Positions 9,882 through 28,420 of a stretch of 38,316 bases of DNA are shown one piece after another. The DNA is from Pirellulales bacterium (GTDB taxonomy: Bacteria > Planctomycetota > Planctomycetia > Pirellulales > UBA1268): NCBI GenBank assembly GCA_039831725.1, contig JBDOMQ010000406.1, forward strand, positions 1 to 38,316. The letters are read 5' to 3'. Under the pieces are notes generated by a model that was given only the letters and a program-made list of their open reading frames with translations, did not search any database and had not been told where the DNA came from. Both the position numbers and the translations under genes were made by a program. Every line of letters begins with the position of its first letter. Positions within the stretch are counted from its first letter, which is position 1.

Positions 9882-10826
9882 ATGCAGTTTGGAAAACTTG
9901 AAAGAAGAATTTTTCTCCTCGGATCGCTCGCGGCTTTTATCCTCCCTGCAAATACTCTATTTGCGGCAGGCTATAGAACAGCAAACTTTGTCGTTGAAGC
10001 CCCCACTCCACAGTTAGCACAGAAGATTGGTGATGCTGCCGAACAGTATCGCCACGACCTTGCCATAGAGTGGATTGGACAACCTCTTCCTCGGTGGAGT
10101 CAGCCATGTCCAATCACCGCAGAAGTAGCCCCAACACTTGGTGCAGGTGGTGCGACAAGCTTCGTATTCGATCGAGGTGAAGTCTTCAACTGGACCATGA
10201 CGATTCAAGGCAGTGAAGAACGGATTCTTGATTCTGTCCTCCCACATGAAGTCACTCATACAATTTTCGCAAGTCACTTCCGTCAACCACTACCACGATG
10301 GGCTGATGAGGGTGCCTGCACTACCGTAGAACATCCGGTAGAAAGAGCCCGACAACACAGACTACTCATCGAGTTCCTACGAACAGGTAGAGGGATTTCA
10401 TTTCCCGAAATGTTTGCCATGAAAGAATACCCGGCAGATGTACTTCCACTTTACTCGCAAGGCTACTCGCTTGCTCGCTACCTGATAGAGCGAGGTGGTA
10501 GAAAACGATACATTCATTTCGTAGGTGACGGTTTAGCAAGTAGCGATTGGCCTCAGTCCTTGAGTCAATATTATGGAATTGAAGATATTGGCAAACTGCA
10601 AACCGTTTGGCTGGAATGGGTGAAACGTGGCTGCCCTGCTCCACCAGCGTCTGTTGCTGCTGCGATTCCTCAAGTTCAAAACATCGCACGGACCGCTCGC
10701 GGACAAAGTCCTGATGGATCAAACGTGAACCAACCCACAAGAGATCGGATTTCCGCAACGGCAGCACGGCAATCGATTTATGTTCAGCGAGCTCAACGCA
10801 TTGAACGGAAAACTAATAGTAACTAG
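9882..10826 (+). CDS. secreted zinc metallopeptidase-like protein (peptidase MA, Peptidase_MA_2-like)
   Basis: 314 aa. It has a signal peptide (RRIFLLGSLAAFILPANTLFAAG) and an HExxH plus downstream Glu pattern (HEVTHTIFASHFRQPLPRWADEGA) typical of gluzincin MA-clan proteins. Confidence 0.6.
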   Translation: MQFGKLERRIFLLGSLAAFILPANTLFAAGYRTANFVVEAPTPQLAQKIGDAAEQYRHDLAIEWIGQPLPRWSQPCPITAEVAPTLGAGGATSFVFDRGEVFNWTMTIQGSEERILDSVLPHEVTHTIFASHFRQPLPRWADEGACTTVEHPVERARQHRLLIEFLRTGRGISFPEMFAMKEYPADVLPLYSQGYSLARYLIERGGRKRYIHFVGDGLASSDWPQSLSQYYGIEDIGKLQTVWLEWVKRGCPAPPASVAAAIPQVQNIARTARGQSPDGSNVNQPTRDRISATAARQSIYVQRAQRIERKTNSN

Positions 10827-11794
10827 CCACCAATAACTAGCACTGTCATGTGATAAAAAACCGGCGCTGCGAAACAGATCGAATCAATACGATCAAGCAC
10901 GCCACCATGACCGACCACAAGCGTTCCATAATCTTTCACGCCCCGGTCTCGCTTGATGGCTGACATTGTCATACCGCCTGCAAATCCCATGACTGCGACG
11001 ACCAGCCCAACGATCGCTGCCTGCCATGGCTGAAATGGTGGTGCCGCCCACCACAGCACTGCTGCAAGAAGCGCCGTACTTGTTGCACTGCCGAGCAGGC
11101 CTTCCCATGTTCGATTGGAACTGACTGCAGCAGCAACTAATCTCTGGCCCAACATTCTACTCCATACATACTGCATACAGTCCGCAAACTGGACGAGTAG
11201 AATCAAAAAGAACAGCAGCCGAAAGTTTGCATCACGACTCCCTAATTCAACTGCACGCTCAGTCGCTCCATCGACTTGAAGTTCGAGGAGAGCTGGTGCG
11301 AATGACAAGCAGTACACGCATACAACAAGACCCGCTTGAATTTTTGCTGTTCGCTCAAGAAATCGCTTGTAGTCACCAGCTACCGCTGCCCTGGCCAGAA
11401 CAAATAACGTCGCATAAACAGGGAGAAACACACTGTAGATGTCGTATCGGTTGAGCCCGACAAGCACATAGTGGAGGGGCGTGAAAAGAAAAAACACCCA
11501 GAACAGCGCTCTGTGATCACCCTTGCGAGTCGGGGTGAGCGTAATGAACTCTCGCAATGCCCAAAAAGAAACGAATCCGAACAGGGTGACGGTAGCAGTG
11601 GACCCAAGCCAGAAAGCAGCAGCCAAAACCGTACATAAAACCCACCATCCGCGAATTCGCATATTAAATGTCCGCACTGCAGCAGCATCAATACCCCGGT
11701 CCGGATGACGTTTAAGAAATTGCCCTACCCCTGTTACTACGGATAGTAAAAGGAGTACGCCCGCAACTAAGGCAATGGTACGAATATCATTCAC
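10823..11794 (-). CDS. cdsA: phosphatidate cytidylyltransferase (CDP-diglyceride synthase)
   Basis: 323 aa and polytopic. The C-terminal CdsA signature is SAIKRDRGVKDYGTLVVGHGGVLDRIDSICFAAPVFYH. GTG start. Its stop overlaps the stop of the convergent 9882..10826 gene (shared CTAG). Confidence 0.85.
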   Translation of the reverse strand: MNDIRTIALVAGVLLLLSVVTGVGQFLKRHPDRGIDAAAVRTFNMRIRGWWVLCTVLAAAFWLGSTATVTLFGFVSFWALREFITLTPTRKGDHRALFWVFFLFTPLHYVLVGLNRYDIYSVFLPVYATLFVLARAAVAGDYKRFLERTAKIQAGLVVCVYCLSFAPALLELQVDGATERAVELGSRDANFRLLFFLILLVQFADCMQYVWSRMLGQRLVAAAVSSNRTWEGLLGSATSTALLAAVLWWAAPPFQPWQAAIVGLVVAVMGFAGGMTMSAIKRDRGVKDYGTLVVGHGGVLDRIDSICFAAPVFYHMTVLVIGG

Positions 11795-11846
11795 TCAGGA
11801 AGCACCCTTTCTGGCATTGGCACCGTGTATCAGTACTGCCACTTTT

Positions 11847-12515
11847 CTATTCCTTCAAAGCTAAGACTGCCCTACGCGCTCGTGCTAGAAAGTCTAGCTT
11901 GGCTTCGTCTCGCTCTAACCAAAGCGGAGGACCAAAGCTAATGCAGGAAAGTAAGGGCACGGGTAAAAATTCTCCACGCGGCAGCACTCTATTAAGATTG
12001 TCGATATGAACAGGTATCAATTCGATTTCTGGACGTTTTTTCGCAAGATAATAGAGCCCACTTTTAAAATCACCAATCTCACCGGTTGTGCTTCGGCTAC
12101 CCTCAGGGAAAACAATAAGAGATCTCGTACTCCCCGCCTGACGCAACATAAGATCAACCGGACTCTGATGAACTTTAATATCTGTTCGATCAATCAGAAT
12201 TGCATTGAACACTTCTTCGGCCAGCCACCTCCTCAAAGCACCGCGAGACCAATAATCTTTAGCCGCTACCGGACGAGTTATTTCCCGAACTAATCGCGGC
12301 AACGACGCCCAGATTAGAAGCGCATCGAGATGGCTCGTATGATTGGCAAAGTATACCCTTTGGCATGTATCTGGCTGACTCGCGATCCAGCGAATACTTG
12401 CCCCCGCCAGCAGACGTGCCAAGCCGGCTAAACCGAGACCGGTTATTCTACATAATGTCGACCGGTTACCTGATTGGTCGAGCGATGGTGTTGGCATATC
12501 AGCAGGGGCAAGCAT
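11847..12515 (-). CDS. plsC: 1-acyl-sn-glycerol-3-phosphate (lysophospholipid) acyltransferase
   Basis: 222 aa. It has the acyltransferase block I NHTSHLDALL (HX4D) and block III FPEGSRS. Confidence 0.85.
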   Translation of the reverse strand: MLAPADMPTPSLDQSGNRSTLCRITGLGLAGLARLLAGASIRWIASQPDTCQRVYFANHTSHLDALLIWASLPRLVREITRPVAAKDYWSRGALRRWLAEEVFNAILIDRTDIKVHQSPVDLMLRQAGSTRSLIVFPEGSRSTTGEIGDFKSGLYYLAKKRPEIELIPVHIDNLNRVLPRGEFLPVPLLSCISFGPPLWLERDEAKLDFLARARRAVLALKE

Positions 12516-13580: not shown

Positions 13581-14516
13581 ATGAGCAGATCAGGGATGAC
13601 TGCGATCAAAGCAACCACAACAAAACATTTTTCCCTTAGCCATAAAACTCTTTGTGGCGTATGTGCATGGACGCTACTCTGCAGTGTTCTTCTGGGTGGC
13701 CTGAAGGCTCAAGAAACTCCAGGAAGCCAGGTAGGATTAATACCAAACGGAGACACGGCGCAAGGTAATATCAACGCCGGCGAGGCAGTATCCAATACCG
13801 GTCAAGGTGAGCACCCTCTGGAACCTGCTCTGGCTCTCGCTGCCAAAGGCCTTAATAACCTTCGGGCTAATATAAAAGACTACTCATGCACAGTTGTCAA
13901 AAGAGAGCGTATCGGGGGCGAACTTCAGCCGCATGAATACATGTTTGCAAAAATTCGACATGAGCCCTTTAGTGTTTATCTCTACTTCCTGGCTCCAGAA
14001 GCAGTAAAGGGACAAGAGGTCATTTATTCTGATGGCAAGAATGATGGGAACATGCTAGCCCATGCGGGTAGTGGGGTACGTGCAATGGTCGGCACGGTTT
14101 CTCTCAAACCACAGAGCATGCTCGCAATGCAGGGCAACCGATATCCAATTACAGAGATTGGTGTCGAGAACCTTGCAGAGCGACTTGTCGAGGTTGCTCA
14201 ACATGACAAGCAATTCGGCGAGTGTGATGTTAATTTTTTCCCTGAAGCAAAAGTAAATGGAAGGGTCTGCACCTGCATTCAGGTTGTCCATCCAGTACCT
14301 CGACGAAACTTCCGTTTTCACCTCGCTCGAGTCTACATGGATGACGAATATCTTATTCCCATTCGCTATGAAGCATATGACTGGCCTAAAGAGCAGGGAG
14401 GCCAACCGATCCTTATGGAAGAATACACCTACATGAATGTCAAAGTGAACAATGGCTTCACAGACGCCGACTTCGATCCCACCAACTCGGCTTATAAATT
14501 TAACTCAGGTGGTTGA
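13581..14516 (+). CDS. exported DUF1571-like protein (predicted LolA/lipoprotein-sorting-like fold)
   Basis: 311 aa. A strong RBS precedes the start. It has a signal peptide (LCGVCAWTLLCSVLLGGLKA/QE). The core LNNLRANIKDYSCTVVKRERIGGELQPHEYMFAKIRHEPFSVYLYFLAPEAVKGQEVIYSDGKNDGNMLAH matches my memory of DUF1571 (PF07608, first described from Rhodopirellula). The family and fold assignments are not verified. Confidence 0.55.
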   Translation: MSRSGMTAIKATTTKHFSLSHKTLCGVCAWTLLCSVLLGGLKAQETPGSQVGLIPNGDTAQGNINAGEAVSNTGQGEHPLEPALALAAKGLNNLRANIKDYSCTVVKRERIGGELQPHEYMFAKIRHEPFSVYLYFLAPEAVKGQEVIYSDGKNDGNMLAHAGSGVRAMVGTVSLKPQSMLAMQGNRYPITEIGVENLAERLVEVAQHDKQFGECDVNFFPEAKVNGRVCTCIQVVHPVPRRNFRFHLARVYMDDEYLIPIRYEAYDWPKEQGGQPILMEEYTYMNVKVNNGFTDADFDPTNSAYKFNSGG

Positions 14517-14526
14517 GAGTCAAAAG

Positions 14527-17500
14527 CTAGGGCCCAGGCCCTGCTCCTTTCTCCGATTCATAGTGTGTAATCGTTGATGACTCATTCACGCTGCCGACGA
14601 TTTGTGTTGATGACGAAACACTCACGCCGTGTCCTGCTCCATACTGCACAGTAGGCTGATCAACGGCCAAGGAGTTAAGATCAAGCCTCGTATACACTTG
14701 AATCAGTCGCCCAAGCCCCGCTCCTGCACTCAGAAGCAAAAGCATAAACCCAGGCCAGGCTGGTTCACGGTAAATAATCCAGCCAACAGCGAGAACGCAC
14801 GCAATAGCTGGCCACCACCGATTAGCGAGTGAGAGCATCTCGTCAGCAAATTTTACAATTCCCCAACATCCCCACACTCCAAGGACTAAAACTACAAGCG
14901 TTGCAACGGCACGTCCGGCCCTTGAAAGGGGCGGGGCGGCAAACCGAATCGTTACAGCTGCACGAGTTGTTTGTGGCTGTATAATCAGTTTTTTCCACCG
15001 ACTGCTTGTGAGAAATGTTGAACTGAATTGTCTTGCGGTCGAACCAACTCCAGACATTCCGGGTGCGCTGCTCACCCAATCTTCTAGTGGCGGAACACCG
15101 TATTGCTTTCGTCGACTCAGACGAAATTCGTTCAATCGTGTCCCTACCCCCTTGGGAAGTGCAGGCGAAATAGTGGCGATGAGTTCGTCAATTTCTGTTT
15201 GTACATTCATCCTTATTTCACGTGACTCATTCTCGTTCAGCACGTCTCCAAGCCCAGCAAACCGTATCACCCGGCTTCTGGGATGATTGATTGTCCACAA
15301 AACTTTCTCAACAGGCATGCCAACCACGCTAGGCAAAGCCAAAGACACTGGCTCCCCTTTCATTGTTGTGGTCTCGAATTCCCCAACGAACACAAAGACC
15401 AATTCGTGTGGCCAGGAATCTGCCCCTACGGGCACAGCCCAAACTTCCGACGAACTGTCACGACGGGGCCTCTGTGGCTGAATTTGCTGACCATCTAGCA
15501 ACATTTCATAAACACGAAATCCTGCTGGTACTCGAACCCGCACTTCAGAGGCCGTCCTTGGTAGTTCAATACAACAAACTCCTGAAATCCGACCACGCTC
15601 ATCGACAATCACTTCGATGTCAATGAGCGGCACAGCGAGAGAAGAATCAACTACGGCTATTGGCTCAACATCGGTATTAGTAAGTACCGATTCTGGACGT
15701 TCCACCAGTGCTTGTTGTGGCTTTATATCGCTCTGATATAGCCATATTGGATCGTCCGAAGGCAATTCAACACGCCACACATCACTCTGGTTTTTCTCTG
15801 AAAGTCGCATCGCAAGCAGACCACGACTACTCTCATCGAGAAGTTTTTCTTGAGCCATACCCAATTCTGAAACGTGCTGATCATCAAAAATCGTAATATT
15901 GTCTCGCTGACCAACATCTCTCCAGATCACTGAATAGGGGAAGCCAACGGCGGAAGCTGATTGCACGAGAGGCAAAACCCCTTTCCTCGGAAGACGAGCA
16001 TTGCTAGTTGCCTGAACCCGTAAAAGAAAAATTCCCGAACGGGGTTGCTGAAGAACTACCCTGTAAACGTTCTGCTTTTCTTTCAGCAAGAAAATGTCCA
16101 GTGGCCGTTCTTTCTGAGAACTGGTGCTCACTTTTTTGTTCTCGAATACTTGACAGGACTCAAGCCGATAACCGTCCGGAATACTGACACGATCCTTGAT
16201 CCAGGCTGTTTGACTTGAATCAATCGTAGCTTCAAAAACCAGGTGATTCTTATCGACACCCTCTACTATTTCTTCTATCTGCGTCCCACGTAAAGGCGTT
16301 TGCTCGCGATTTACCTCTACATATGCCGTCTGTCTCCGCAAGACAAAAGGCTGACGACTTACGTCGACCCCATCTCCAGAAAAGTCAGTGGAACTATCTT
16401 CAGAGAACGACTCGTTGACACTTTCTATGAGTTCGGTAACCCATTGCAAAGTCCCATCCCCAAGTTCATTTACCTGCGGAGGAGCTACTGCCTCAGGAAA
16501 CTGCACGTTGTATGAAATGCCTGGGTTACCAACCAATACTGACTCACGAGTATCCCGTCCAACTCCTCGGATCCACGCATACGGCAACTCATATTTGCCG
16601 ATATGATTTATCAATGGCATACGAAATACCATCTGAAACGTTATCTTCTCTCTGCTGGGCTCAGTACGATCGACTCTGTAGATACCTCGCCCTAATGACT
16701 GCACTTCAAATTCACCCGTTATGTGAGGTGCATCAACTTTTTCTTGTCCTTGATCGAGAACAAGGCGAGGGTCTGCCTGAATCCAGAATGTCGGCAGTAT
16801 TGCATCACCCCCATCTATCATGAATTCCGCCGTTAAGACGATGCCATTCGGTGTCCATGACATCTGATTTCTGCTTTCCGATTCAGGGACCCTTATTGTC
16901 AAAGTCTCTTTGCGATCCAAAGGTTGAATAACTCGTAGACGGTCGGCAGGAGGAACCCTGAAACTCTGCAGCCGTGAATCGAGAGACACTGTCTCTTGCG
17001 CTGGCTGAAAGATTCCCTGACCAGTCGACCATTCACACTGAAATCCTCTACGCTGCCCACGCGAATTAGCCATTTCGGCAGAAGGCATCATCGCGACCAC
17101 GGTCTGTGGAGACCTCGGAAGGCAAATCTCACAAGCCTCTACATCACCCCTTCGTGTTCTTACAGGCTCCAACGGAATAACAAGGCTATGCCTTCCTCCG
17201 GCTGGAAGTAATAGACGTGCCTGTTTACGATCAGCAGACAACGACGCACTTAACGACCCTCCATCAAGAAGAAACGGCTCATCACCAAAACGACCTCCTG
17301 CAGCTGACTGATCAAGCAAAAGCACGTCAGCTGAATCAGTTTGCACCAAGAGCTTTAAACGCCAAACTTCATCATCGTTCTGAGTAGCCGAACCAGGAGC
17401 CGATGGCAACTCAATTCTTGAGTTCAAAATGTGCACTCCAGAAGACTGGGATGCCCCTGTTCCAGCTAACACTCTGTAAAGTGGCTCCGGAACCAGAGCC

Positions 17501-20500
17501 GTTGTTTCTCCATCAACTGGGGTAAGAAACACCTGCACAGGCACCTCACTACCATAGGAACACACTCCTGAGGACATGCATACAAGAAACACAAAAGACA
17601 TCTGCTTCTTTGCACGCCCATATATCCAAATACGAAAACCAGCAGCAGCAAGAATTCCCCATAAGCTTGCACGAGCTATCAGATCAAACGGTGAAGGCAC
17701 CCACAACGCAGCTACTGAAGCAACCACAACACTGGCAACCAGCAACCATGCACTCCTCCAAAAAAAAGCTAATGACAACAACGTTGCAGCGGCAGCAACA
17801 CCAAGAGCTGACACAGCCAACAACCATCGATTAACCAGCAGAAAAAATCTTGGCTGGTATCGTCCACTCGTTGGAACAAACCATCGTGAGTTGAATGTAG
17901 ATGAAGCAGCGCGGAGGCTCGTCTTTGCGAACCACGACTCTCGTTGAGACAGTCCAGAAAGCCTTTCGACCCAGTCAGTATCCTGCTGAAAAATTTCTGT
18001 GTATCCGGACGGAACTTCAACCAGCCGTACATTCTTTGGGAGATCCAGCTGCATTTCCCGAGTAAGTGTTGGGGCATCAACCGCTGGCACAACAGAAGAC
18101 AACTTCCAAATCCCTTGAAAAAAATCAGCCACAACAGCTGTATGCACGGTTACAAAAACTCGTTGACGGCCACTTGGCAGATAGACAGGAAACTCTCGAA
18201 CGTTCGATGACTGCAGAGGTATGGATTCGCCCTGTACCTCTAACCCGATTAGGCGATGGCCCTCTGGCAAACTCACGGTAACACTTTGCCTACCATCATT
18301 TTCGATAATAAACGTTGTTTCATACTCCGCATTTGCAGATGCATAACATCGCACCCGCGAACTCTCTCTCCACACCCAAGCGCGGGCAACAGACTGAACG
18401 CTATCAGGAGCCGGTAGAATTTCTACAGAAGGCCCCGTTTGGGCTAAAGTCGATCCGTCGTACAGTAACTCGACAACTGACTGAATTGGCAATATTGACT
18501 GATCTGCCAAAGGTGGCAGTTGAACAAGACAATGATTGAGTACTGAGGGGCGGCTTCCGCGGGCAGCTTGAATACTGATACGACCCTGTGTCGCAACTGC
18601 TGATTCAACCCACACCAGAGGAAGAGCAGTCTGTTCTTTAAACTGTTGTTTTCCAGTTGCTCTCAGAGTGACCGCCCCTGTTACCGGAGGATTCAATTCG
18701 ACCAACCAGGACTCTTTCAAGGACCTTTCTGTGCTATCCGACTCTGCACCAACATTTGACTCGGTGGTATTGAGACGACGAGCAATAGTCGTTGTCTCAT
18801 TATCAGAAAGAATTGACCAATCAAGATTTCCAACCGGTTCTGAAAAGTGCACCGTGACGGCGTCAAGTTCGCCCTGAAATGCCTGACACAAAAAACTATA
18901 GGTTTCACTAAGTTGATCGCCACGAACTGTGAATTGCGACTGGGCAAAAACTTCAAGAGGGGGTCGTCTACGAAGAAACCGGAACACATTCGGAGTAGCA
19001 AGCCGACCTACAGGCACGCGTTGCCGCCAAACACCTTGTTCAGCAAGTAATGTTAAACGTGGTTCAAATAATACTTCATTCTCTGGCCCCTTAATCTTCA
19101 CTAGTGTGGTTTCTGGGCTCGTCCGTAAGTCGACCCAAGCCTGACCAGAAATTTCACCGACAAGCTGAATCATGTCGGCGTCTGTGGAGCGAATCTGTCC
19201 ACCCGCCGGCACACCACGACGATGGCCCGTTATCCTAATTCGTAGACGCTCTCCATCATGAATAGCTTGGGGAAAGTCGAGAATAAGCTGATCGTCGTTC
19301 TTGCCTCGCACTACTTTCCACTCATATCCCCCCACCACGTTACCGACATCACGCTGTACACGATCCGGAATGACTTGTTCTGCTGCATCGCCACGCTCGG
19401 CCACCGTGTCTTCAGCGATGAGTGGCTCAACTGAATCGATAAACCACTCCTTACCAATTCGCCCAACAATACTGTGTACGCTGCCACGACGGACATAAAT
19501 ATCACAGGCAGCACGTCCAATCAGTGAAGCAGAAGAGACATCAACTGTCGTTACTCGAGCAACATCAAAATCTGGTTGCCTCTTCATAACTGAAACGCCA
19601 CACGAACCATCTGCATCTTGTTGCTCAAACGCAAATCCTGATTCGCTGCGTTGGCTTGCGAAGCCGTCGAGTGAACCGGTACTGAAATTGGCTACCTTCG
19701 GCCATTCAACTGCTTTTTCAGGTGCAACTGCAAGACAGTTTCCCACCACCACATCGGAGACTTGAAGGGTATTTTCTACGTCTATGAAAAACCCACCGCC
19801 AACCCAAAGCTCTGCATCAATCGCCACACCAGGAAGTTGGAAACTCTCCTTCTCTTTGTGAATACTTGAGATGACACTTCGAAGCAGAATGCGTGCATTG
19901 GTTCCTATGAGGGTTGCCGGCAGCCGGAGACTAATCGTATCGTCCGATTCATGACGAACATCCACTGCATTAGATCTTCTCATTTGGTTTGGCCCGTCGC
20001 CATAAGCCTGAGCGCTCATGATTGTGACTTGTTTATCAATCTTGAGACGCACAGATCTCTCCGACCAAACTGTCTCGGGAAGAATAATTGAGCCAATCTC
20101 TACAGTTCTTTCTCCAATAGAGATGCTAGACCAAACCGAACAACGATTTGTACGACGAGGAGAAAGTGTCACATCAATCGACCGTCTCGGCCCAAATTTA
20201 TATCGCCAACGACAAAATTCATCAGAGGCCAATTCATTATCATCAACTGTATCGGTGATCGGCACGTTACCTACGACCATCGGCACAACAGTTTCTGGAA
20301 GATCGAGGACAAGTGTTGTCGACAGAGAGGGGACACGTGGGAATAAAAAGCTGGACTGGCCCACACTCGAAGAGAACCCCCGATTGAGTGAGCGTTCTGT
20401 ACGTACAGGTAGCACACGAAGATTGGCAAATAACCTACCCGCACCAGGTGCCTGAAAATCTATCGAGCCATCCGGCTTTCCGAACAAATTAACAGGCACA

Positions 20501-21048
20501 CCATCTGGTTTCCATAATTTATCTAGCGACTGTAATTCCTCACTTTCCTGCAACCAATCAATCGGTTGCGAGGCTGTACCTTCTTCATTAAGCCAACGGC
20601 TATTTTGAAAGCGTGCCTCTCCTGGAAAGACCTCAATTGCTCCACCTAGATCGGGCAACCGCACAGAAACATCTCCGAGGAGCGCTCCTGATTCATCGAG
20701 CTTCATTTCGTAGAGGACGTATTCGGCAACCGGGCGAGGTGCTTCAAAAGCACGCTTCGCATCGAGTGGTAACAGTCGCTGGACAACCGTATCAAATTCA
20801 TCGACGGCCATTGGGATGTAGCGTGTCTCATCACGAATGACCTCGGAAAGACGACCGGAAGGCACGTACACACGAGAGAAGGACAGACCGCCATTTTCAA
20901 CTCGGCCAACAGGGCCTTCCCTGGCTTCATCGACATCTGCTCCATATAAAAAATCACCTTGCCTCACACTGTATCTGCAAAGAAAAAAAATAAGTACTAC
21001 GAGAAGTAGTCGCCAAAATGGTATGTGAAAACAATATTTTTTGCACAT
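14527..21048 (-). CDS. giant membrane protein (about 2173-2176 aa), two tandem ectodomain modules, unknown function
   Basis: This is an uninterrupted 6.5-kb ORF, open to a GTG at 21057. I favour the ATG at 21048 (MCKKYCF..), with GGAG 11 nt upstream. It has an N-terminal anchor (FWRLLLVVLIFFLC), an ectodomain of about 1040 aa, four hydrophobic helices at residues 1071-1168, a second ectodomain of about 880 aa, three C-terminal TM helices (residues 2050-2125) and a 51-aa S/T/G-rich tail. I saw no catalytic or known repeat motif. Confidence 0.9.
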   Translation of the reverse strand: MCKKYCFHIPFWRLLLVVLIFFLCRYSVRQGDFLYGADVDEAREGPVGRVENGGLSFSRVYVPSGRLSEVIRDETRYIPMAVDEFDTVVQRLLPLDAKRAFEAPRPVAEYVLYEMKLDESGALLGDVSVRLPDLGGAIEVFPGEARFQNSRWLNEEGTASQPIDWLQESEELQSLDKLWKPDGVPVNLFGKPDGSIDFQAPGAGRLFANLRVLPVRTERSLNRGFSSSVGQSSFLFPRVPSLSTTLVLDLPETVVPMVVGNVPITDTVDDNELASDEFCRWRYKFGPRRSIDVTLSPRRTNRCSVWSSISIGERTVEIGSIILPETVWSERSVRLKIDKQVTIMSAQAYGDGPNQMRRSNAVDVRHESDDTISLRLPATLIGTNARILLRSVISSIHKEKESFQLPGVAIDAELWVGGGFFIDVENTLQVSDVVVGNCLAVAPEKAVEWPKVANFSTGSLDGFASQRSESGFAFEQQDADGSCGVSVMKRQPDFDVARVTTVDVSSASLIGRAACDIYVRRGSVHSIVGRIGKEWFIDSVEPLIAEDTVAERGDAAEQVIPDRVQRDVGNVVGGYEWKVVRGKNDDQLILDFPQAIHDGERLRIRITGHRRGVPAGGQIRSTDADMIQLVGEISGQAWVDLRTSPETTLVKIKGPENEVLFEPRLTLLAEQGVWRQRVPVGRLATPNVFRFLRRRPPLEVFAQSQFTVRGDQLSETYSFLCQAFQGELDAVTVHFSEPVGNLDWSILSDNETTTIARRLNTTESNVGAESDSTERSLKESWLVELNPPVTGAVTLRATGKQQFKEQTALPLVWVESAVATQGRISIQAARGSRPSVLNHCLVQLPPLADQSILPIQSVVELLYDGSTLAQTGPSVEILPAPDSVQSVARAWVWRESSRVRCYASANAEYETTFIIENDGRQSVTVSLPEGHRLIGLEVQGESIPLQSSNVREFPVYLPSGRQRVFVTVHTAVVADFFQGIWKLSSVVPAVDAPTLTREMQLDLPKNVRLVEVPSGYTEIFQQDTDWVERLSGLSQRESWFAKTSLRAASSTFNSRWFVPTSGRYQPRFFLLVNRWLLAVSALGVAAAATLLSLAFFWRSAWLLVASVVVASVAALWVPSPFDLIARASLWGILAAAGFRIWIYGRAKKQMSFVFLVCMSSGVCSYGSEVPVQVFLTPVDGETTALVPEPLYRVLAGTGASQSSGVHILNSRIELPSAPGSATQNDDEVWRLKLLVQTDSADVLLLDQSAAGGRFGDEPFLLDGGSLSASLSADRKQARLLLPAGGRHSLVIPLEPVRTRRGDVEACEICLPRSPQTVVAMMPSAEMANSRGQRRGFQCEWSTGQGIFQPAQETVSLDSRLQSFRVPPADRLRVIQPLDRKETLTIRVPESESRNQMSWTPNGIVLTAEFMIDGGDAILPTFWIQADPRLVLDQGQEKVDAPHITGEFEVQSLGRGIYRVDRTEPSREKITFQMVFRMPLINHIGKYELPYAWIRGVGRDTRESVLVGNPGISYNVQFPEAVAPPQVNELGDGTLQWVTELIESVNESFSEDSSTDFSGDGVDVSRQPFVLRRQTAYVEVNREQTPLRGTQIEEIVEGVDKNHLVFEATIDSSQTAWIKDRVSIPDGYRLESCQVFENKKVSTSSQKERPLDIFLLKEKQNVYRVVLQQPRSGIFLLRVQATSNARLPRKGVLPLVQSASAVGFPYSVIWRDVGQRDNITIFDDQHVSELGMAQEKLLDESSRGLLAMRLSEKNQSDVWRVELPSDDPIWLYQSDIKPQQALVERPESVLTNTDVEPIAVVDSSLAVPLIDIEVIVDERGRISGVCCIELPRTASEVRVRVPAGFRVYEMLLDGQQIQPQRPRRDSSSEVWAVPVGADSWPHELVFVFVGEFETTTMKGEPVSLALPSVVGMPVEKVLWTINHPRSRVIRFAGLGDVLNENESREIRMNVQTEIDELIATISPALPKGVGTRLNEFRLSRRKQYGVPPLEDWVSSAPGMSGVGSTARQFSSTFLTSSRWKKLIIQPQTTRAAVTIRFAAPPLSRAGRAVATLVVLVLGVWGCWGIVKFADEMLSLANRWWPAIACVLAVGWIIYREPAWPGFMLLLLSAGAGLGRLIQVYTRLDLNSLAVDQPTVQYGAGHGVSVSSSTQIVGSVNESSTITHYESEKGAGPGP
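14683..14910 (-). other. C-terminal 3-TM bundle of the 2176-aa protein
   Basis: AVATLVVLVLGVWGCWGIV / WWPAIACVLAVGWIIY / WPGFMLLLLSAGAGLGRLI, followed by the hydrophilic tail DLNSLAVDQPTVQYGAGHGVSVSSSTQIVGSVNESSTITHYESEKGAGPGP. Confidence 0.65.
17554..17850 (-). other. internal inter-module junction of the 2176-aa protein (3 TM + basic loop + signal-anchor-like helix)
   Basis: Residues 1070-1168: RFFLLVNRWLLAVSALGVAAAATLLSLAFFW / AWLLVASVVVASVAALWV / ASLWGILAAAGFRIWIY / GRAKKQ / MSFVFLVCMSSGVCSY. Confidence 0.65.
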
Positions 21049-21056
21049 ATGTACCA

Positions 21057-24000
21057 CTACTCCGTTTCAGCTCTTGACTGAGACGACGCAGCGGGAACAA
21101 CCGTCTGCGCAGTAGATGGCTTCATATTAATAACGAGTGACTCTTGAGGCGGGACGTTATTTGATCCCGATTGCTTCATCTCCCACGACTCCGGCTCATA
21201 CGTGCCTTGAGCACGACTCTTGGGCAGAAGACGCCACCAACTAGTGACTCCGGCTGGGACAGCAAGCGCGAGACCGGGCAGACTTGCTCTCAGAACGCAA
21301 AGTGTAATTGTTGGCCCAATTGCCATGCCACCAATGAAGACGACAGACGCTCCGACCAAAACCACTGTTACCAATCTGGGGAGGACGGTTAATACGACAC
21401 CGACTGCAAGTGGAATTCCACTTGCTATGAGCACAAGTAACCACCGAGGGAAAAGAAAAACACCCACATCAGCAGGACTTCCCATATCGCAGAACACCCG
21501 CCTGTGTTCAATAAAATCTCTTGGCACAGACAGCCAACCAGACCCTAGTCTTCCCTGCGTCTTCGACTGTGGATTCGCAGCCGCAGTTACCCATGATGCC
21601 AGGTCTTGCACTGAAACAGCTGGCTTTTGGTTCAAACTTGGACTACTCCAGTCCCAAACTTGTTGGCTTGTCCACCCTCGGGGACCCCATAGAAGTTCGG
21701 ACCCATCTGGTACCAAGATTTCCCAGACAACACGGCTATACAACGAGGACGACGGCATCGCAGAACTTTGGAAGTCGATCCAAGCGAGGCCGTTGATCGC
21801 TCCCTTAAATAAACTTTCTTTCCGTGGTTGACGAACTTCTACTTCAACAAGATGAGTTCCTCGTGTCTGACCTAAGTCGAGATTGACTCTTCCTGTAGCT
21901 TCGTCCGCGGCACTCCACGGTGAATTATTGACCCGAGCTCTCGCTATTCGATTGCCTAGCACCTCACCATTTTCATTCTCATCTTCCGTCAAAACAGGCA
22001 GGGTAAGTGTCAAAGCATCAGAGGAACTTGTCACAGCAAACGCCCATTGATCAGTCCTCATTGGGCCCCGAAGTGTCGTTCGCACCCAGGTCGCCTCCAC
22101 GACAGTTTCACCAAGCAAAGTCCTCTGACTTTGGCTTACTGCTATGTCGATTGCCGCTTGCCCCTGAGAGGCGTTCCATGTTCTACCGAGCCCTATTGTC
22201 TGCAGATTCCCTTCTCGATTCCACCGGTCGTCGCGTACGTCGACATTCAGTTCTTCGATAGAAGAAAGAGTGACTGATTGACGAGCAACAACCGCACCCT
22301 TTGGAAGCAGGAGAGGAATAGATACCGGAACTGTTGCCTCTTCTGGTATCTCCGGCATGAGTTGGCTATACCGCGTTACAAGTTCGCCACTCCCGAACAA
22401 TGGATTGGGCAACAGGACTCGAACAATACGCCAGGAACGCTCACCGTCATCAATTTCAGCACCTGCCCCCAACTCATTATTGTTCAATTCATCTCCACCC
22501 AAATCATCGACTCCAGATGATCTACTGATAACTTCTGGAGTCAACAACTCACCATTGAAACGAGCCTCGATGGCACCTGCCTCAACCACGCTTTGAGGCA
22601 CCATCCACTCAATGAATTGAAGCGGGACGTGGGCTACGTTTATACGGGTTGCCTGCTGTACAACCACCTGCCGCAAACCGACGTCCACTTGCGCGGTGAT
22701 CGATGCGTCAATCTGTTGGTCAAGAATACGGCGTGTTGCCACAAAAGTTGCCTTATCGGCCTGAACCCGATACGACATTCTCGACAAATCAACCGTTGGG
22801 CTATTCAACTGTGACAAGACTTGTCGGCTCATGCCTACAATTCGTTCCGTATCCGGAACGAGTTCAATATCACTCTCGGAAGTAATTCCTACACTTGCAG
22901 GTCCAACAAGATCGGCTTTTGGAACAGGTGTGGTCCACTGCACCTCCTCACTAGCCGGATCGAGTTGACGGCTGCATTGCAGTTCAACCACCACCTCTCC
23001 GGCTATTGGCTTAAGGAATGGAACAGTAACCACCCCGGAAGACTCTGACACAGATGCACTATCAACAACACCGGGAGGACCGACTCCCTCAATTTTCCAG
23101 CCAGGTGCCAAGATATCTAGTTGCTTTGCTGCAACACCACGAACAACAGCTTGCAGACGAATCGATAACTCCAACCTGTTTCTGGTGACGTGGAAGATAT
23201 ATTCAGGCTCCACTACTAATTGACTTCTCCGTGGAAGCACTTGTAACGGCAGTGACATAGGCTGCGAGTCGAATGCAAATGCCGCGACAAACCCTTCCTG
23301 TGAAAGAGTTGCAGACGCATCAGTTTGTCTATTCCCGGATCGAGGTTCCCACTCGACAGTCCAGTCTTCATCAGTAAAGACACTCACCTGACCCCACTGC
23401 CGCCATAGTGGGATTTCGTCAATAGAAAAACCACCAACATCTATTCGGTCTTCGCTAGAAGTATCGATTGCTCGCTCACAAACAAGCTCAAAAGAAGCAT
23501 TCCCATCTTTTGTTTTATCAACCCGAACAACAACTTGCGGCCTTGAAGGAGAACCTCCGCGGCTGAGTATTTTTGCGGCATTTCCCACTGACCGAACAAC
23601 TGAACGGGAAGGTAGTCGGATAGTAAAAAGCCCCTCATTTTTAGCAAGATTCGTCAGAGAAAATCCGGCTGTTATCTCTGCCAATCGACCATCTACTCGA
23701 ACAACACTTTCAACTCTAGACTCAGCAATCTGCCGAACAGGAACATTTCCTATTTGAGACTCCTCTAACTGGAGTCGTGTGGGCCCGACCGCACCACGAA
23801 TCTCTACGATACTTCCTGCTGTGTCGTCCTCGCCATCGATCAGCTGTGTGGTAGGCGTGATGACACCGGCGTTAATTTTGACCAGAGGATCACGTCGCTG
23901 TGTTTCTACTGATATTTTTGAGTCTGTAGCAGCTGGTAAAGTAAAGCTCAACTGATCACGATCAAGTGACACGTCCACCGGAACCTGACCTTTCAGCACA

Positions 24001-24740
24001 ATCGTATGAGGCCTTCCACCTTCTCGCCTCTTCACTGAGTCAGTCTCCTGCCCTTCATTCTGCTCATTAATCCAGACAAGGAAGCCTTTGTCTAAGATGG
24101 ATTGTGGCTCGAAGACACCTTGCCGAAGAGATGGTTGATTGGAGGCCCTGTCGGTCTTGCTATCTACTGGTGATGGATCAATTGTGACCACAACCTCACC
24201 ATTTCCAACAACTTCAGGTGGCTTCGCAAGAATAAGTTCGGGGAGTTTCAACGGCAGCATACCCCATCCTGAGCGAGTACTCCGGACGACACACTCCACA
24301 TCGACGTCAGCATGCGTAACGTTGCTCCCGGCTGGAGCCGGCAAACGTATTTTCATTCGGAGTTGCTCAAGGACGACTCCCGGCGTCTCTGCCTGAGCCG
24401 GCAAACCATCTCGCAATCGGACAAGGTCCACAAAGTCTCGATAGCGAAATCCTGGAACAGGAATCAAACGACCTAAATCGTCCTCCACGTAATACAGGTT
24501 CGGTTCTACTTGTCTCACTTCTCGTGCCACAGGCCCCGCCTGATCATCACGAACCTCTTCTCCGAGACATGAAATACTCACCACCAGAAGCCCTACAAGG
24601 CCACGAAAAACAGAGCCAACTAATTGCCGGGCTTTAGGCAGGCAGGAGTACAACCACCTGTGTAGCACACATCTCACAACAACTCGCAAGTGAGTTGTGC
24701 ACACGTTATTTTGCTCAGTGATTCGTCTGGCTGTGGCCAA
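21057..24740 (-). CDS. giant membrane protein (up to 1227 aa), single ectodomain module, paralogous to the first half of the downstream 2176-aa protein
   Basis: This is an uninterrupted 3.7-kb ORF. It has a signal/anchor segment (LVGSVFRGLVGLLVVSISCLG, residues 40-60), an ectodomain of about 1030 aa, three TM helices (residues 1092-1172) and a 55-aa hydrophilic tail. The first in-frame ATG is codon 129, so the start must be TTG or GTG (24740, 24704, 24689, 24677, 24668 or 24653). The exact 5' end is uncertain. Confidence 0.85.
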   Translation of the reverse strand: MATARRITEQNNVCTTHLRVVVRCVLHRWLYSCLPKARQLVGSVFRGLVGLLVVSISCLGEEVRDDQAGPVAREVRQVEPNLYYVEDDLGRLIPVPGFRYRDFVDLVRLRDGLPAQAETPGVVLEQLRMKIRLPAPAGSNVTHADVDVECVVRSTRSGWGMLPLKLPELILAKPPEVVGNGEVVVTIDPSPVDSKTDRASNQPSLRQGVFEPQSILDKGFLVWINEQNEGQETDSVKRREGGRPHTIVLKGQVPVDVSLDRDQLSFTLPAATDSKISVETQRRDPLVKINAGVITPTTQLIDGEDDTAGSIVEIRGAVGPTRLQLEESQIGNVPVRQIAESRVESVVRVDGRLAEITAGFSLTNLAKNEGLFTIRLPSRSVVRSVGNAAKILSRGGSPSRPQVVVRVDKTKDGNASFELVCERAIDTSSEDRIDVGGFSIDEIPLWRQWGQVSVFTDEDWTVEWEPRSGNRQTDASATLSQEGFVAAFAFDSQPMSLPLQVLPRRSQLVVEPEYIFHVTRNRLELSIRLQAVVRGVAAKQLDILAPGWKIEGVGPPGVVDSASVSESSGVVTVPFLKPIAGEVVVELQCSRQLDPASEEVQWTTPVPKADLVGPASVGITSESDIELVPDTERIVGMSRQVLSQLNSPTVDLSRMSYRVQADKATFVATRRILDQQIDASITAQVDVGLRQVVVQQATRINVAHVPLQFIEWMVPQSVVEAGAIEARFNGELLTPEVISRSSGVDDLGGDELNNNELGAGAEIDDGERSWRIVRVLLPNPLFGSGELVTRYSQLMPEIPEEATVPVSIPLLLPKGAVVARQSVTLSSIEELNVDVRDDRWNREGNLQTIGLGRTWNASQGQAAIDIAVSQSQRTLLGETVVEATWVRTTLRGPMRTDQWAFAVTSSSDALTLTLPVLTEDENENGEVLGNRIARARVNNSPWSAADEATGRVNLDLGQTRGTHLVEVEVRQPRKESLFKGAINGLAWIDFQSSAMPSSSLYSRVVWEILVPDGSELLWGPRGWTSQQVWDWSSPSLNQKPAVSVQDLASWVTAAANPQSKTQGRLGSGWLSVPRDFIEHRRVFCDMGSPADVGVFLFPRWLLVLIASGIPLAVGVVLTVLPRLVTVVLVGASVVFIGGMAIGPTITLCVLRASLPGLALAVPAGVTSWWRLLPKSRAQGTYEPESWEMKQSGSNNVPPQESLVINMKPSTAQTVVPAASSQSRAETE
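21225..21467 (-). other. C-terminal 3-TM bundle of the 1227-aa protein
   Basis: VGVFLFPRWLLVLIASGIPLAVGVVLTVL / RLVTVVLVGASVVFIGGMAIGPTITLCVL / ASLPGLALAVPAGVTSWW, then the tail PKSRAQGTYEPESWEMKQSGSNNVPPQESLVINMKPSTAQTVVPAASSQSRAETE. Confidence 0.65.
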
Positions 24741-24949: not shown

Positions 24950-25783
24950 TTACCCAGTGAGGAGATCACGGAGCCCAGTCGCAACCCGTTGATTGGCTGC
25001 AGCAACAAATGCCGGACGATCCAGCGACACGGTTGCCTGCACCGGAAGTTCGCAGGAATCTTCTGGGTGTCGACAGGGCACCACCACCGCCCCTGCCTCT
25101 GCAGCAATCAATAACCCAGCAGCGACATCCCAGCATGCAATTCGACGCACCCAAAAGCCATCAAGTCTGCCTGCCGCCAGATACGCCAAATTAATCGCAG
25201 TGGAGCCAGTCCTGCGTACGGAGTGGACATGTGGCACAATCGAAAGAAAATCCGCCACTGCAACGGACTCACGATCTACGTGCGGCGGAAAACTCACCGC
25301 AACAAGCGCATCGGAAAGGTGTGGTGGATCCGTAGTTCGAAGAACCGTGTTTTCAAGTCGAGCTCCCCCACCACGAATGGCTGTGAAGCACTCATCTGCA
25401 ACCGGGTCATAAATTGCCCCGGCTAGAATTTCATCACGATAGGCGAGCGCTACTGAAACACAATAAGCTGGAAAGCCATGAACATAATTGCTCGTACCAT
25501 CAAGCGGGTCCACCATCCAACGCAGTGAAGAACTGGCGGAATCTTGAGCACCCTCTTCTCCAATAAATCCATGATCTGGAAATCTACTCAAAAGAATTTC
25601 ACGGATTGTTTTCTGAGAAGCAAGATCCGCCTCAGTAACAAGATCTCTCGGACCCTTTGTAGAGACAGCAAATCGTCCACGCCAGTCGCGAAGCACGTCA
25701 CCTCCTGCGCGTGCCGCAACCTCTGCAAACTCGCCAAACTCATTCAGCTGTTCTACCGTACTAATTTCTGAGGGGACATTCAT
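24950..25783 (-). CDS. suhB: inositol monophosphatase family protein (SuhB-like)
   Basis: Contains FIGEEG and WMVDPLDGTSNYVHGFPAYCVSVAL, the IMPase motifs, and the later WDVAAG. I prefer the ATG at 25783 (MNVPSE..). The ORF is open to a TTG at 25795. Confidence 0.85.
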   Translation of the reverse strand: MNVPSEISTVEQLNEFGEFAEVAARAGGDVLRDWRGRFAVSTKGPRDLVTEADLASQKTIREILLSRFPDHGFIGEEGAQDSASSSLRWMVDPLDGTSNYVHGFPAYCVSVALAYRDEILAGAIYDPVADECFTAIRGGGARLENTVLRTTDPPHLSDALVAVSFPPHVDRESVAVADFLSIVPHVHSVRRTGSTAINLAYLAAGRLDGFWVRRIACWDVAAGLLIAAEAGAVVVPCRHPEDSCELPVQATVSLDRPAFVAAANQRVATGLRDLLTG

Positions 25784-26136
25784 TTGCGAACCCAATGGTG
25801 GATGTATTTGAAGAAATTTTATTTATAAAAGGCCAACGCACCAGACAGCTTCTTTGCGACCCGGCAAAGCCTCTACTCGCAGTGGCTTCACGCCTGTGGT
25901 TCAAACGCCATATCGCAAGGACACTCGAAACAAATCCGTTGCGGTCCAAACGTGAACAGACATATTGACTCCTCAGAGGATCACGTGGCATGCATAGCCT
26001 TCCCGGAGGACATCTTAAACACAGCAGAAGAACCACAAACCGTGTATAACAACATTTCGATGAATAACAAATCAACACATGCAGCACTATTTGTCACTCC
26101 TGCTGCATTCCCGTGCCAGCAGACACATTCTCCATC

Positions 26137-26964
26137 ATGAAAATCGAGTCTCCCCCTCCGTCAACAAAAAATCGGACATCTGACACGAGTGCCTCAAAAG
26201 AACATTTGCAGGCGAATCCCAAGGAACGGACACACAAACTTGGGTCGCTGACAACTCAATTGGATCTAGCGAAACCAGGATCGGGCATATCCATAAAGTC
26301 TGGTGAGTCCTCGATTTCCATACTTGGCATCTGTCTTCCTAAACAGACTCTTTCATTCAGTGATGGTTGGTTCCGGGGAAATGACGCTACTGGTGTCTAT
26401 GCTGTTAACGATGCCCGTCAGTTACAGACCAGCGGCTTATGGAGATTGCAGGGTACGTGGTGCCCGTTGAGTGACATAGAAAATTCGATTACGGCAGAAC
26501 TCATTCTCTCCAGCGAGACACTCAGAGAGAAAAGTGATGGATCTCTTGCCGTTGAAAATTCATTCCTGGCAACATCGGCGCAAACAGGAAGATGGTCCAC
26601 CAACTCATTCCACTGGGAACGAGAGACGCTAGGATCGCGTGAGTACTGGAGCAAAAAATCTGGCCAAACCATAACGGTTCAATGTTTTGTATTCCAACTC
26701 CCAGGCTTTGAACACACGATCGCATTGTTTACCCGAAGTGACGAAATTCACCACACGGCGTTGACATCCTCACCTGCCGGAGATTGTCATGGCTCAGCGA
26801 CACACAAATACGTGCTGAAAAGCTATTTTTTTCCGACAATCATTGAGAAGGGAGTGCTCCATCGCGGTCGAATACTGGCCGTTCTGGGACCATCTCAGTC
26901 TGAAAAAGACTGGTGCACGGCGGCTGCCGAAGCATTTGCACACCAGCCACCTCTTTTGCAGTAG
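26137..26964 (+). CDS. hypothetical protein, no recognisable motifs
   Basis: 275-aa ORF from the ATG at 26137 (283 aa from the GTG at 26113). It is on the same strand as the downstream YhaO/YhaN-like pair and 153 nt upstream of it. It has no TM segment and no motif that I recognise. Coding status rests on ORF length and the absence of a competing frame. Confidence 0.45.
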   Translation: MKIESPPPSTKNRTSDTSASKEHLQANPKERTHKLGSLTTQLDLAKPGSGISIKSGESSISILGICLPKQTLSFSDGWFRGNDATGVYAVNDARQLQTSGLWRLQGTWCPLSDIENSITAELILSSETLREKSDGSLAVENSFLATSAQTGRWSTNSFHWERETLGSREYWSKKSGQTITVQCFVFQLPGFEHTIALFTRSDEIHHTALTSSPAGDCHGSATHKYVLKSYFFPTIIEKGVLHRGRILAVLGPSQSEKDWCTAAAEAFAHQPPLLQ

Positions 26965-27106
26965 CGGAATTCAGCGGATTGCCGGTACAGTCCCTGGTGG
27001 ATTGGTAGACCAGGTAAACCAAGTAAAGATTAGCGACGCTGACCGGCCAAGCCACTCACGGTGTTTTTTGTGAGCGCGTCGACGACAACGCGAGCCCTAC
27101 TAAGAA

Positions 27107-27114
27107 AGGAGGAG
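27107..27114 (+). promoter_or_regulatory. Shine-Dalgarno site (AGGAGGAG) for the 27118 start
   Basis: AGGAGGAG lies 3 nt before the ATG at 27118. This is why I reject the longer GTG-initiated ORF from 27061. Confidence 0.6.
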
Positions 27115-27117
27115 ACC

Positions 27118-28347
27118 ATGTTCGATCTGCTCTTTATAGGCAATCCCGCAATTGATAAAGCGATTGCTGAACCAGAAGACATGCCACAATCGCTCGTAGC
27201 CAGACTCCGTGGAGCACCTCTAAAAACTCTCGAAAAAACATACCGCCTCGCAATTGAATCGCAGGCACAAGGAATTGTTCTCTGTGGATCAATCATGGAC
27301 CCCGCTCGTGTGAGTCCAGCACAACTCGTTGCATTGCGTCAGTTGATTATCGAGGCTGCTGACCACGATTGCGAGACGCTCTGGGTAGCGACAAATCCAG
27401 CTGATGCCCAAGAATACTTACGCATGCTGGGTGAACCGAAGGGACTCTCTTTTGCCAGCTCTCTCCGCCCCTGGACCAAAACTATTCGTTCTACAACCGT
27501 TGAACTATGGGCTGTTTCTACTGAAGCAGATATCGAGAGAATCGCTACTCAGAGTTCATTTGAGCCTCTCCATCGGCAAATCATTGTTGGCTCGGATACG
27601 TGCCCGGACAATGATCACGACAATGATCACTCTGTGCAATCGTTTCTATCGTCTAGTCATTTGTTACAGCCTAACACGTTGGCTGTCTGGGCAACGCAAT
27701 CCTCTTCGTCACTACCTCAGCATGTTTTTCCACTTCCAAGCATTCAATCACGTCGACAAACGGACTCACTGAACACTGGTTGCTATGGGCTTACGTTCTA
27801 TAGGCCACAATTTGATGGTGACAGTGATTCTCATTTGGGAAATAAATGTACAGTCGATCAGTGGAAAAAACTTCCAGTAAGTGAAGTTATCTGGCGAACT
27901 CTTCATATCGAATCAGCCGATGAGGACCATGAAGCACTTTCCCAACTCCTCTGGGAAGCCTGCCAGGGTTTGTTGGGTACCGTCGTACCAGAAGTCGACG
28001 AGACAATAGCAGCGAGTCCACTCGTCATCATAGACTGCAAAATAGCATGCGGAACCAGCATAACCCGACGACTCGAGGTCAATGAAATAGCCCCAGAGAC
28101 GAAAAGAATTCTTCGTGAACGATGCGCTGCGGCATCTCCGCATATTTGGATACAAACTATCTCTGCTGACGTTGAAGAGCCACTTGCGGCCCTTGGGCGC
28201 AACCGTTCTGGAGGACGTCCGGGTGCAAGCAACTCTTTCACATCTGCTCTCGCCGACCTCGTAACAGAGGCCGAAACGGCGTCTCCTGAGACAACGGTCC
28301 AACGTGAAGCTGGTTGGCTGGCACTTGAACTTCTCGAAAGTGAATAA
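27118..28347 (+). CDS. YhaO/SbcD-like calcineurin-fold protein with apparently degenerate metal-binding motifs
   Basis: 409 aa from the ATG at 27118. It sits immediately upstream of a YhaN/SbcC-like ATPase, which is the canonical nuclease-ATPase gene order, and its size matches YhaO-type partners. The strand pattern is LLFIGNPAID ... IVLCGSIMDP ... LWVATNPAD, at the places where metallophosphoesterases have D-x-H, G-D-x-x-D and G-N-H-D/E. Homology is inferred, not verified. Confidence 0.5.
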   Translation: MFDLLFIGNPAIDKAIAEPEDMPQSLVARLRGAPLKTLEKTYRLAIESQAQGIVLCGSIMDPARVSPAQLVALRQLIIEAADHDCETLWVATNPADAQEYLRMLGEPKGLSFASSLRPWTKTIRSTTVELWAVSTEADIERIATQSSFEPLHRQIIVGSDTCPDNDHDNDHSVQSFLSSSHLLQPNTLAVWATQSSSSLPQHVFPLPSIQSRRQTDSLNTGCYGLTFYRPQFDGDSDSHLGNKCTVDQWKKLPVSEVIWRTLHIESADEDHEALSQLLWEACQGLLGTVVPEVDETIAASPLVIIDCKIACGTSITRRLEVNEIAPETKRILRERCAAASPHIWIQTISADVEEPLAALGRNRSGGRPGASNSFTSALADLVTEAETASPETTVQREAGWLALELLESE

Positions 28348-28420
28348 AGGAGCAAAAGATGCAGCCACAGAGGAAAAGTAAGTAGAACGCCAGCGCGGCT
28401 ACCTTCAAGGAACTTTATTC

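Follow-up and report, generated by a model that had tools for sequence, protein, structure and literature searches.

Several internally duplicated envelope membrane proteins, including RND/MmpL proteins, SecDF and tandem FtsX, repeat a unit in which one transmembrane (TM) helix and a large periplasmic domain precede a TM bundle; the repeats are distributed over two genes in some cases and fused in others. FtsX and MacB consist of TM1, a large periplasmic domain and TM2–4, often as tandem pairs, and RND proteins and SecDF have 12 helices in total. Here we analyze a pair of giant genes, A and B, which repeats a comparable plan three times. The pair lies in a 38,316-nucleotide contig (JBDOMQ010000406.1, assembly GCA_039831725.1; in full length referred to as the window) with about 49 % G+C from a marine Pirellulales bacterium, and homologue searches place the nearest relatives of A and B in marine Pirellulales metagenome-assembled genomes (MAGs). 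Gene A (21057..24740, minus strand), an open reading frame (ORF) of 1227 codons when counted from the TTG farthest upstream, its true start being uncertain, forms the first module. Gene B (14527..21057, minus strand; 2176 codons, 2176 aa) carries two further modules, B1 (residues 1–1152, 17602..21057) and B2 (residues 1153–2176, 14527..17601), and its GTG start overlaps the A stop codon by one base. The 12 hydrophobic helices of A plus B match the total of RND and SecDF, but the RND/SecDF unit is built of 1 + 5 helices rather than 1 + 3, three repeats are present here, there is no sequence similarity, and the periplasmic part of A and B is all-beta and five to ten times larger than in proteins of the RND, SecDF and FtsX type. 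With high confidence, A, B1 and B2 are homologous and represent three paralogous modules, as judged from profile–profile alignment, matching predicted secondary structure and common fold matches. The data support A and B1 as the closest, fully collinear pair, and B2 as a shortened, more diverged copy.

The family is unnamed and widespread in Planctomycetes. Each genome devotes some 3400 residues and 12 hydrophobic helices to A and B, and in all examined Pirellulales loci of sufficient length the position of the pair is conserved, yet the family lacks a domain annotation and any sequence-level structural relative. A full search with the hidden Markov model of A retrieved 2791 cluster representatives (E ≤ 1e-3), of which 1098 reach E ≤ 1e-30. 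Against Pfam and NCBIfam, A had no family match and B only DUF5693 (E 0.24, under its cutoff), 31 A homologues gave three isolated Pfam matches (E 0.03 or worse), and PADLOC returned nothing for A or B. Against PDB chains, the best match of the A-family profile was at E 0.42, and the B-family profile had none at E ≤ 5. Literature searches found no paper on the family, and the triplicated architecture was not found described in the libraries and papers searched.

The original prediction, made from the letters of the DNA, had described an architecture repeated in A, B1 and B2, with an in-to-out hydrophobic helix, a huge ectodomain, three TM helices and a short cytoplasmic segment. This three-fold repeat was borne out by hydropathy and by the positive-inside rule, which is satisfied by all three units alike; the ORFs and their coordinates proved correct, and the quoted motifs were found at the residues and nucleotides assigned to them. 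Each unit contains a positive stretch, one hydrophobic helix, 750–1000 hydrophilic residues, three back-to-back hydrophobic helices and a positive segment (all features within A and B are on the minus strand). By hydropathy, the opening segments are residues 39–60 of A (24561..24626; a signal peptide or signal anchor, …LLVVSISCLG/EEVRDD, the slash marking the candidate cleavage position) and residues 7–32 of B (20962..21039). The three consecutive TM helices lie at residues 1095–1167 of A (21240..21458; hydropathy cluster 1091–1165), 1072–1147 of B for B1 (17617..17844; hydropathy cluster 1071–1147) and 2047–2123 of B for B2 (14689..14919), followed by cytoplasmic tails of about 60 aa in A and about 50 aa in B2.

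Pairwise comparison did not recover the relationship between the modules. BLASTP, which had been proposed as a check, gave no significant alignment among A, B1 and B2 (best E 0.05–0.8, scattered and non-collinear), and single-sequence phmmer against all locus ORFs found no ORF matched by both A and B. The BLASTP result is no refutation, because the divergence exceeds the reach of pairwise methods. Family alignments were built from 86 A homologues found by word search, 33 B homologues from a protein database and 83 genomic loci carrying the pair. In HMMER, the A profile matched B1 modestly (E 1.8e-8, in a tiny database), and the B2 profile had no significant match to A or B1. In hhalign, the A and B families aligned with 98.6 % probability and E 1e-15 over 908 columns on one collinear path, running from the N-terminal motif to the TM bundle (A 87–~1165 against B 75–~1145), far from background, as expected of the collinear paralogues that had been proposed; independently built alignments gave 96.8 % and E 2.3e-10. 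A and B2 aligned in two collinear pieces, A 691–1033 to B2 451–797 (88 %, E 3e-6) and A 239–620 to B2 132–559 (75 %, E 2.6e-5), and B1 and B2 aligned at 63 % and E 7e-5. When A and B1 were merged into one profile, B2 was matched at 98 % and E 1.5e-13 (A 241–612 to B2 134–551), with further, weaker collinear matches in the membrane-proximal domain and at the final TM helix. Such strengthening upon merging is the behavior expected under true transitive homology, and the earlier description of B2 as a shorter, weaker copy agrees with the profiles. Reversed-profile controls (n = 7) reached a top score of 36, with E 0.009 or worse. On the basis of this collinear profile–profile homology, which exceeds the reversed-profile controls, a superfamily of A, B1 and B2 modules is proposed here.

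The alignment connects corresponding elements along the modules. The N-terminal motif of A, NLYYVEDDLGRLIPVPGFRYRDF (residues 81–103, 24432..24500), aligns to B 75–123 with E 1.6e-4 to 2.3e-5 in full-length context, and G90, L92, V95, P96, G97, F98 and F103 are invariant across the A family. A motif common to all three N-termini had been suggested; it aligns as proposed and is not significant alone (E 0.25–0.3, equal to the control; A–B1 E 0.01). The best-conserved central ectodomain block of A (residues 488–553, 23082..23279; FAFDSQ … GWKIEGV) aligns to residues 475–543 of B (19429..19635; FAFEQQ … EWFIDSV), and all four motif pairs originally quoted for A and B1 fall into aligned columns, namely FAFDSQ/FAFEQQ, VLPRRSQLVV/VMKRQPDFDV, GWKIEGV/EWFIDSV and FLFPRWLL/FLLVNRWLL. 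Within the FAFDSQ/FAFEQQ motif, only the D/E and the Q hold across the family, and identity at FAF is in part lineage-specific. In the windowed scan, the strongest piece common to the three modules is the membrane-proximal beta-sandwich domain, where A 908–1031 (21648..22019) matches B 924–1029 in B1 (17971..18288) at E 1e-8 and B 1827–1943 in B2 (15229..15579; VRVRVPAGF…LLDG…VLWTINHP) at E 1e-4. Here the W1006/P1011 motif of A is in aligned columns, as is the suggested A/B2 pair VVWEILVP/VLWTINHP. Further toward the C-terminus, the TM helices of A align to B 1072–1144, and the third TM helix of B2 aligns with the third of A around a common PG motif.

Much of each module consists of beta-sandwiches, and the resemblance could in principle be domain-level only, with independent immunoglobulin-like sandwich arrays placed on ordinary membrane anchors and no duplication of a whole module. 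Both A (38 %, E 3e-4) and B do have weak off-diagonal matches to themselves, and one A–B2 match is off-register (A 772–836 to B2 307–367); part of the signal therefore stems from repeated domains, and the structural matches described below are likewise generic beta-sandwich arrays. On the other hand, the A–B1 alignment is a single collinear path of about 900 columns, which at E 1e-15 is far stronger than any off-diagonal match. Matches in the sliding-window scan trace two diagonals, with offsets of about −35 to +22 (B1) and +929 to +1083 (B2), and the alignment extends to parts that are not sandwiches, namely the N-terminal motif, the beta-hairpin, the PG motif and the TM helices. We consider it very unlikely that domain-level resemblance accounts for the three modules.

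The predicted structures of A and B2 agree with paralogous modules. AlphaFold2 with the family alignments gave a good model of A 31–1227 (mean pLDDT, the predicted local distance difference test, 78.7) and a B2 model with pLDDT 63.3. In either model the ectodomain is all-beta and built of successive sandwich domains, some strands in A being 23–25 residues long, and it is followed by one to three short helices, a beta-hairpin and three TM helices linked by loops of 1–4 residues (1069–1147 in the numbering of the A model, to which 30 is added for A numbering). Under the hhalign mapping, the DSSP states of the A and B2 models agree at 77.8 % of 492 positions, compared with 40–54 % in shifted registers. 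B2 lacks about 160 residues matching A ~620–890, approximately one beta-sandwich domain, and carries a longer helical insert ahead of the hairpin and TM bundle.

Foldseek searches of the PDB retrieved the same matches for A and B2, namely Ost1/ribophorin I, integrin alpha legs and macroglobulin-domain proteins, with PIG-T found for B2 only. Ost1/ribophorin I was the top match of both models (E 1e-8 to 1e-7, probability 1.0, ~460–500 columns), its superposition giving a TM-score of 0.25–0.32 on the target and a root-mean-square deviation of 18–21 Å. Low TM-scores (0.1–0.3 over all matches) are to be expected of flexible, multi-domain chains, and the matches therefore indicate fold class, not function; at that level, Ost1/ribophorin I and the integrin legs come nearest among solved structures. 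Like the modules, Ost1 and PIG-T, which belong to the eukaryotic oligosaccharyltransferase and glycosylphosphatidylinositol-transamidase complexes, have beta-sandwich domains with long strands, in their case a luminal pair, followed by a membrane helix. Ost1 nevertheless has one TM helix and two domains instead of three TM helices and about seven domains, is not triplicated, has no sequence or Pfam match to the modules (the Ribophorin_I profile matched nothing), and belongs to another kingdom and complex. Integrin alpha legs (thigh, calf-1 and calf-2) and macroglobulin arrays also form a long beta-sandwich stalk leading to a membrane anchor, but the likeness is generic (TM-score ~0.1), and A and B have neither a beta-propeller head nor a thioester.

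The appearance of alpha-2-macroglobulin, CD109, C3/C4 and the staphylococcal Sdr/Clf adhesins among the Foldseek matches raises the idea that A and B are membrane-anchored macroglobulin-like or adhesin-like proteins, which trap proteases or bind periplasmic ligands. We give this idea hardly any credence, since these matches have low probability (0.1–0.3 for the alpha-2-macroglobulin class) and TM-scores below 0.1, the C.EQ/CxEQ thioester motif is absent from both A and B, and C-terminal anchors of three TM helices together with triplication are unlike bacterial alpha-2-macroglobulins.

The topology itself suggests another comparison. The modules could be divergent permease units of the MacB/FtsX type, performing mechanotransmission driven by an ATP-binding cassette (ABC) ATPase, as the 1 + 3 TM topology with cytoplasmic N- and C-termini is identical and tandem repetition is shared. 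However, no FtsX or MacB_PCD Pfam match was found in A, B or the A homologues even at E 1, and the all-beta ectodomain of about 1000 aa is unlike the alpha-beta Sabre/Porter fold. In addition, the inter-TM loops are only a few residues long and offer no space for a coupling helix, and the conserved neighborhoods lack an ABC ATPase, with none in the window and none in the five divergent contexts considered. A MacB/FtsX-type permease is thus a highly improbable identity for the modules.

Gene order and fusions bear on how the three paralogous modules may act together. In every adequately long locus examined, A (~1100–1250 aa) is directly followed by B (~1900–2400 aa), and the two-module length of B is kept in all complete copies; distant B homologues, including a Gemmataceae protein, have the same spacing of TM clusters. 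The duplication is older than the divergence of the sampled Pirellulales lineages, and probably older than the divergence of Gemmataceae. Three single-chain A + B1 + B2 proteins were found, P0126 (3077 aa), P0130 (3007 aa) and P0249 (3410 aa), and the regions of each are recognized by their own module profiles; P0249 is one called gene of 3410 codons in an NCBI assembly (L086:8001-18233). Fusion of this kind is a classical sign of parts that function jointly, and it fits the topology, since every module finishes on the cytoplasmic side, from which the following leader sets out. P0249 is very divergent from P0126 and P0130, suggesting that fusion (or fission) occurred more than once. The invariable order A→B, in which the stop codon of A adjoins the start codon of B, and the three single-chain fusions lend indirect support to the hetero-oligomeric or serial assembly suggested in the original prediction. 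We regard the chances of a joint complex of the A and B modules as about even.

The first helix of each module may call for a different reading from the one initially proposed. The hydrophobic segment is present in all modules, but its n-h-c layout is that of a Sec signal peptide, and judging from sequence, these first helices, including the internal one of B2, look like cleavable signal peptides that may not be permanent TM helices; B would then perhaps be processed into two proteins. Among 189 A-family N-termini, 165 have the hydrophobic leader, and a −3/−1 small-residue site is found in 152 of these 165; the B-family N-termini resemble the A-family leaders. Of 56 non-redundant homologues, 55 have at the B1/B2 junction a short basic loop, a hydrophobic core, a −3/−1 small-residue site and then acidic residues; a strict AxA is present in 29 of the 56, against a background of 11.5 % in same-size ectodomain windows. 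Examples are …PALA/AEQP, …VARA/DEA and …ATAA/DP. In the window, the internal signal-peptide-like segment opening B2 (B residues 1153–1172, 17542..17601; hydropathy 1153–1169) reads GRAKKQ-MSFVFLVCMSSGVCSYG/SEVP and ends in …SSGVCSYG/SEVP. A conserved Cys-rich motif, SG(V/A)CSYG, occurs inside the junction segment in the marine clade to which the window belongs.

Taken together, the best explanation, which we consider reasonably probable, is an ancient triplication that gave rise to a pseudo-trimeric periplasmic scaffold. A and B would be the products of tandem triplication of one membrane-protein module. In this module, a hydrophobic leader of the Sec type is followed by a short conserved hairpin-helix motif and by a periplasmic stalk of 750–1000 residues made of consecutive beta-sandwich domains, with the conserved membrane-proximal domain last; a beta-hairpin then leads to three tightly packed TM helices, through which the chain re-enters the cytoplasm. 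The full domain series would have been kept in A and B1, and B2 would have lost approximately one domain. Side by side in the cytoplasmic membrane, the three modules are predicted to form a pseudo-trimeric complex with 9–12 TM helices and three long beta-rich periplasmic legs, associating via the TM bundles and the conserved central and membrane-proximal domains. As for function, the lack of any family or PDB sequence match, the absence of thioester and HExxH motifs from A and B, and the all-beta ectodomain support a structural role, and our tentative and admittedly doubtful guess is that the complex is neither enzyme nor transporter but serves the planctomycetal envelope as a scaffold, spacer or tether. 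Furthermore, signal peptidase I may remove the leaders, including the internal one between B1 and B2, so that B would behave as a polyprotein; one signal peptide would then be internal in B and two in the fused forms of 3000–3400 aa. On this basis one may speculate, with little expectation of being right, that signal peptidase I releases three C-terminally anchored beta-stalk subunits, which build a periplasm-spanning tripod specific to Planctomycetes and organizing their envelope.

Several points weigh against the triplicated scaffold and its extensions. The B1–B2 similarity by itself is weak (63 %), and the off-diagonal matches noted above show that repeated domains contribute some of the signal. 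The B2 model is only of moderate quality, the structural comparison covers the A and B2 models at the level of secondary-structure strings, and the Foldseek TM-scores are low (0.1–0.3), with generic beta-sandwich arrays as the matched folds. The joint complex is deduced solely from adjacency, fusion and paralogy. Signal-peptidase cleavage is argued from motif counts in Ala-rich proteins, and the N-terminus of B in the window has a poor cleavage site.

With A, B1 and B2 recognized as copies of one module, the problem posed by the pair shrinks to one unit some 1000 residues long, and a hetero-oligomer with pseudo-three-fold symmetry is predicted. The pair offers concrete targets for genetics, cryo-electron tomography and proteomics in a phylum whose envelope is poorly explained in molecular terms, and the internal signal-peptide-like junction is a testable candidate for polyprotein-style processing in bacteria.

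The surroundings of the pair are partly conserved. Directly upstream of A lies an inositol-monophosphatase-family (IMPase) gene (24950..25795, minus strand; Pfam E 4.7e-60), which is SuhB/HisN/CysQ-like and matches no NCBIfam model at cutoff. In 57 of 63 loci it occupies this position, immediately before A and in the same orientation, and it is also present in the distant loci L003 and L084, where the other neighbors differ; three more loci with an upstream IMPase gene were rejected by the filter, by our reading owing to overlapping extended stop-to-stop ORFs. It is absent beside the fused A–B gene in L086. On the other side, B is adjoined by a convergent gene (13581–14516, plus strand) matching DUF1571, a Pfam family known as planctomycete-specific. 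A perfect GC-rich hairpin (GGGCC-CAGG-CCC region) lies between the two convergent genes at 14528–14543, where it directly follows the stop codon of B, and is a possible bidirectional terminator; a promoter and terminator scan of the operon was uninformative, with fewer promoter-like sites than in shuffled sequences.

Genes for a PlsC-like acyltransferase and CdsA (CTP_transf_1) lie downstream of B in the window (10823–12515, minus strand) and recur in divergent genomes (L001 and L002). The fused locus L086 likewise has a PlsC-like gene, and an AI-2E_transport-family gene is recurrent upstream. The recurrence of phospholipid genes may reflect plain synteny or a lipid/envelope theme. Divergent from IMPase–A–B, a cluster of three plus-strand genes (26113–31732) encodes proteins of 283 aa and 428 aa, both without a family match, and an SMC/AAA_23-like ATPase of 1103 aa; the trio occupies the same place in L001 and L002, and its size pattern recalls condensin-like or Wadjet-like systems. 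Checked as a possible partner or defense system, the trio gave only generic matches to the ATPase N-terminus, the sole part recognized by PADLOC.

Several contigs of the GTDB collection that carry a Pirellulales-type pair (L014, L018, L023, L030, L033, L036 and others) are titled as "Candidatus Kuenenia" or "Chitinophagaceae" MAGs, and these taxonomy labels are likely wrong. Finally, the cytoplasmic tail of A (residues ~1185–1227) has the family consensus ASS(L/T)TR..A..PSL.I with a near-invariant S1201. This conserved motif is kept as the A–B1 linker in the fused proteins, and a partner in the cytoplasm may dock there.

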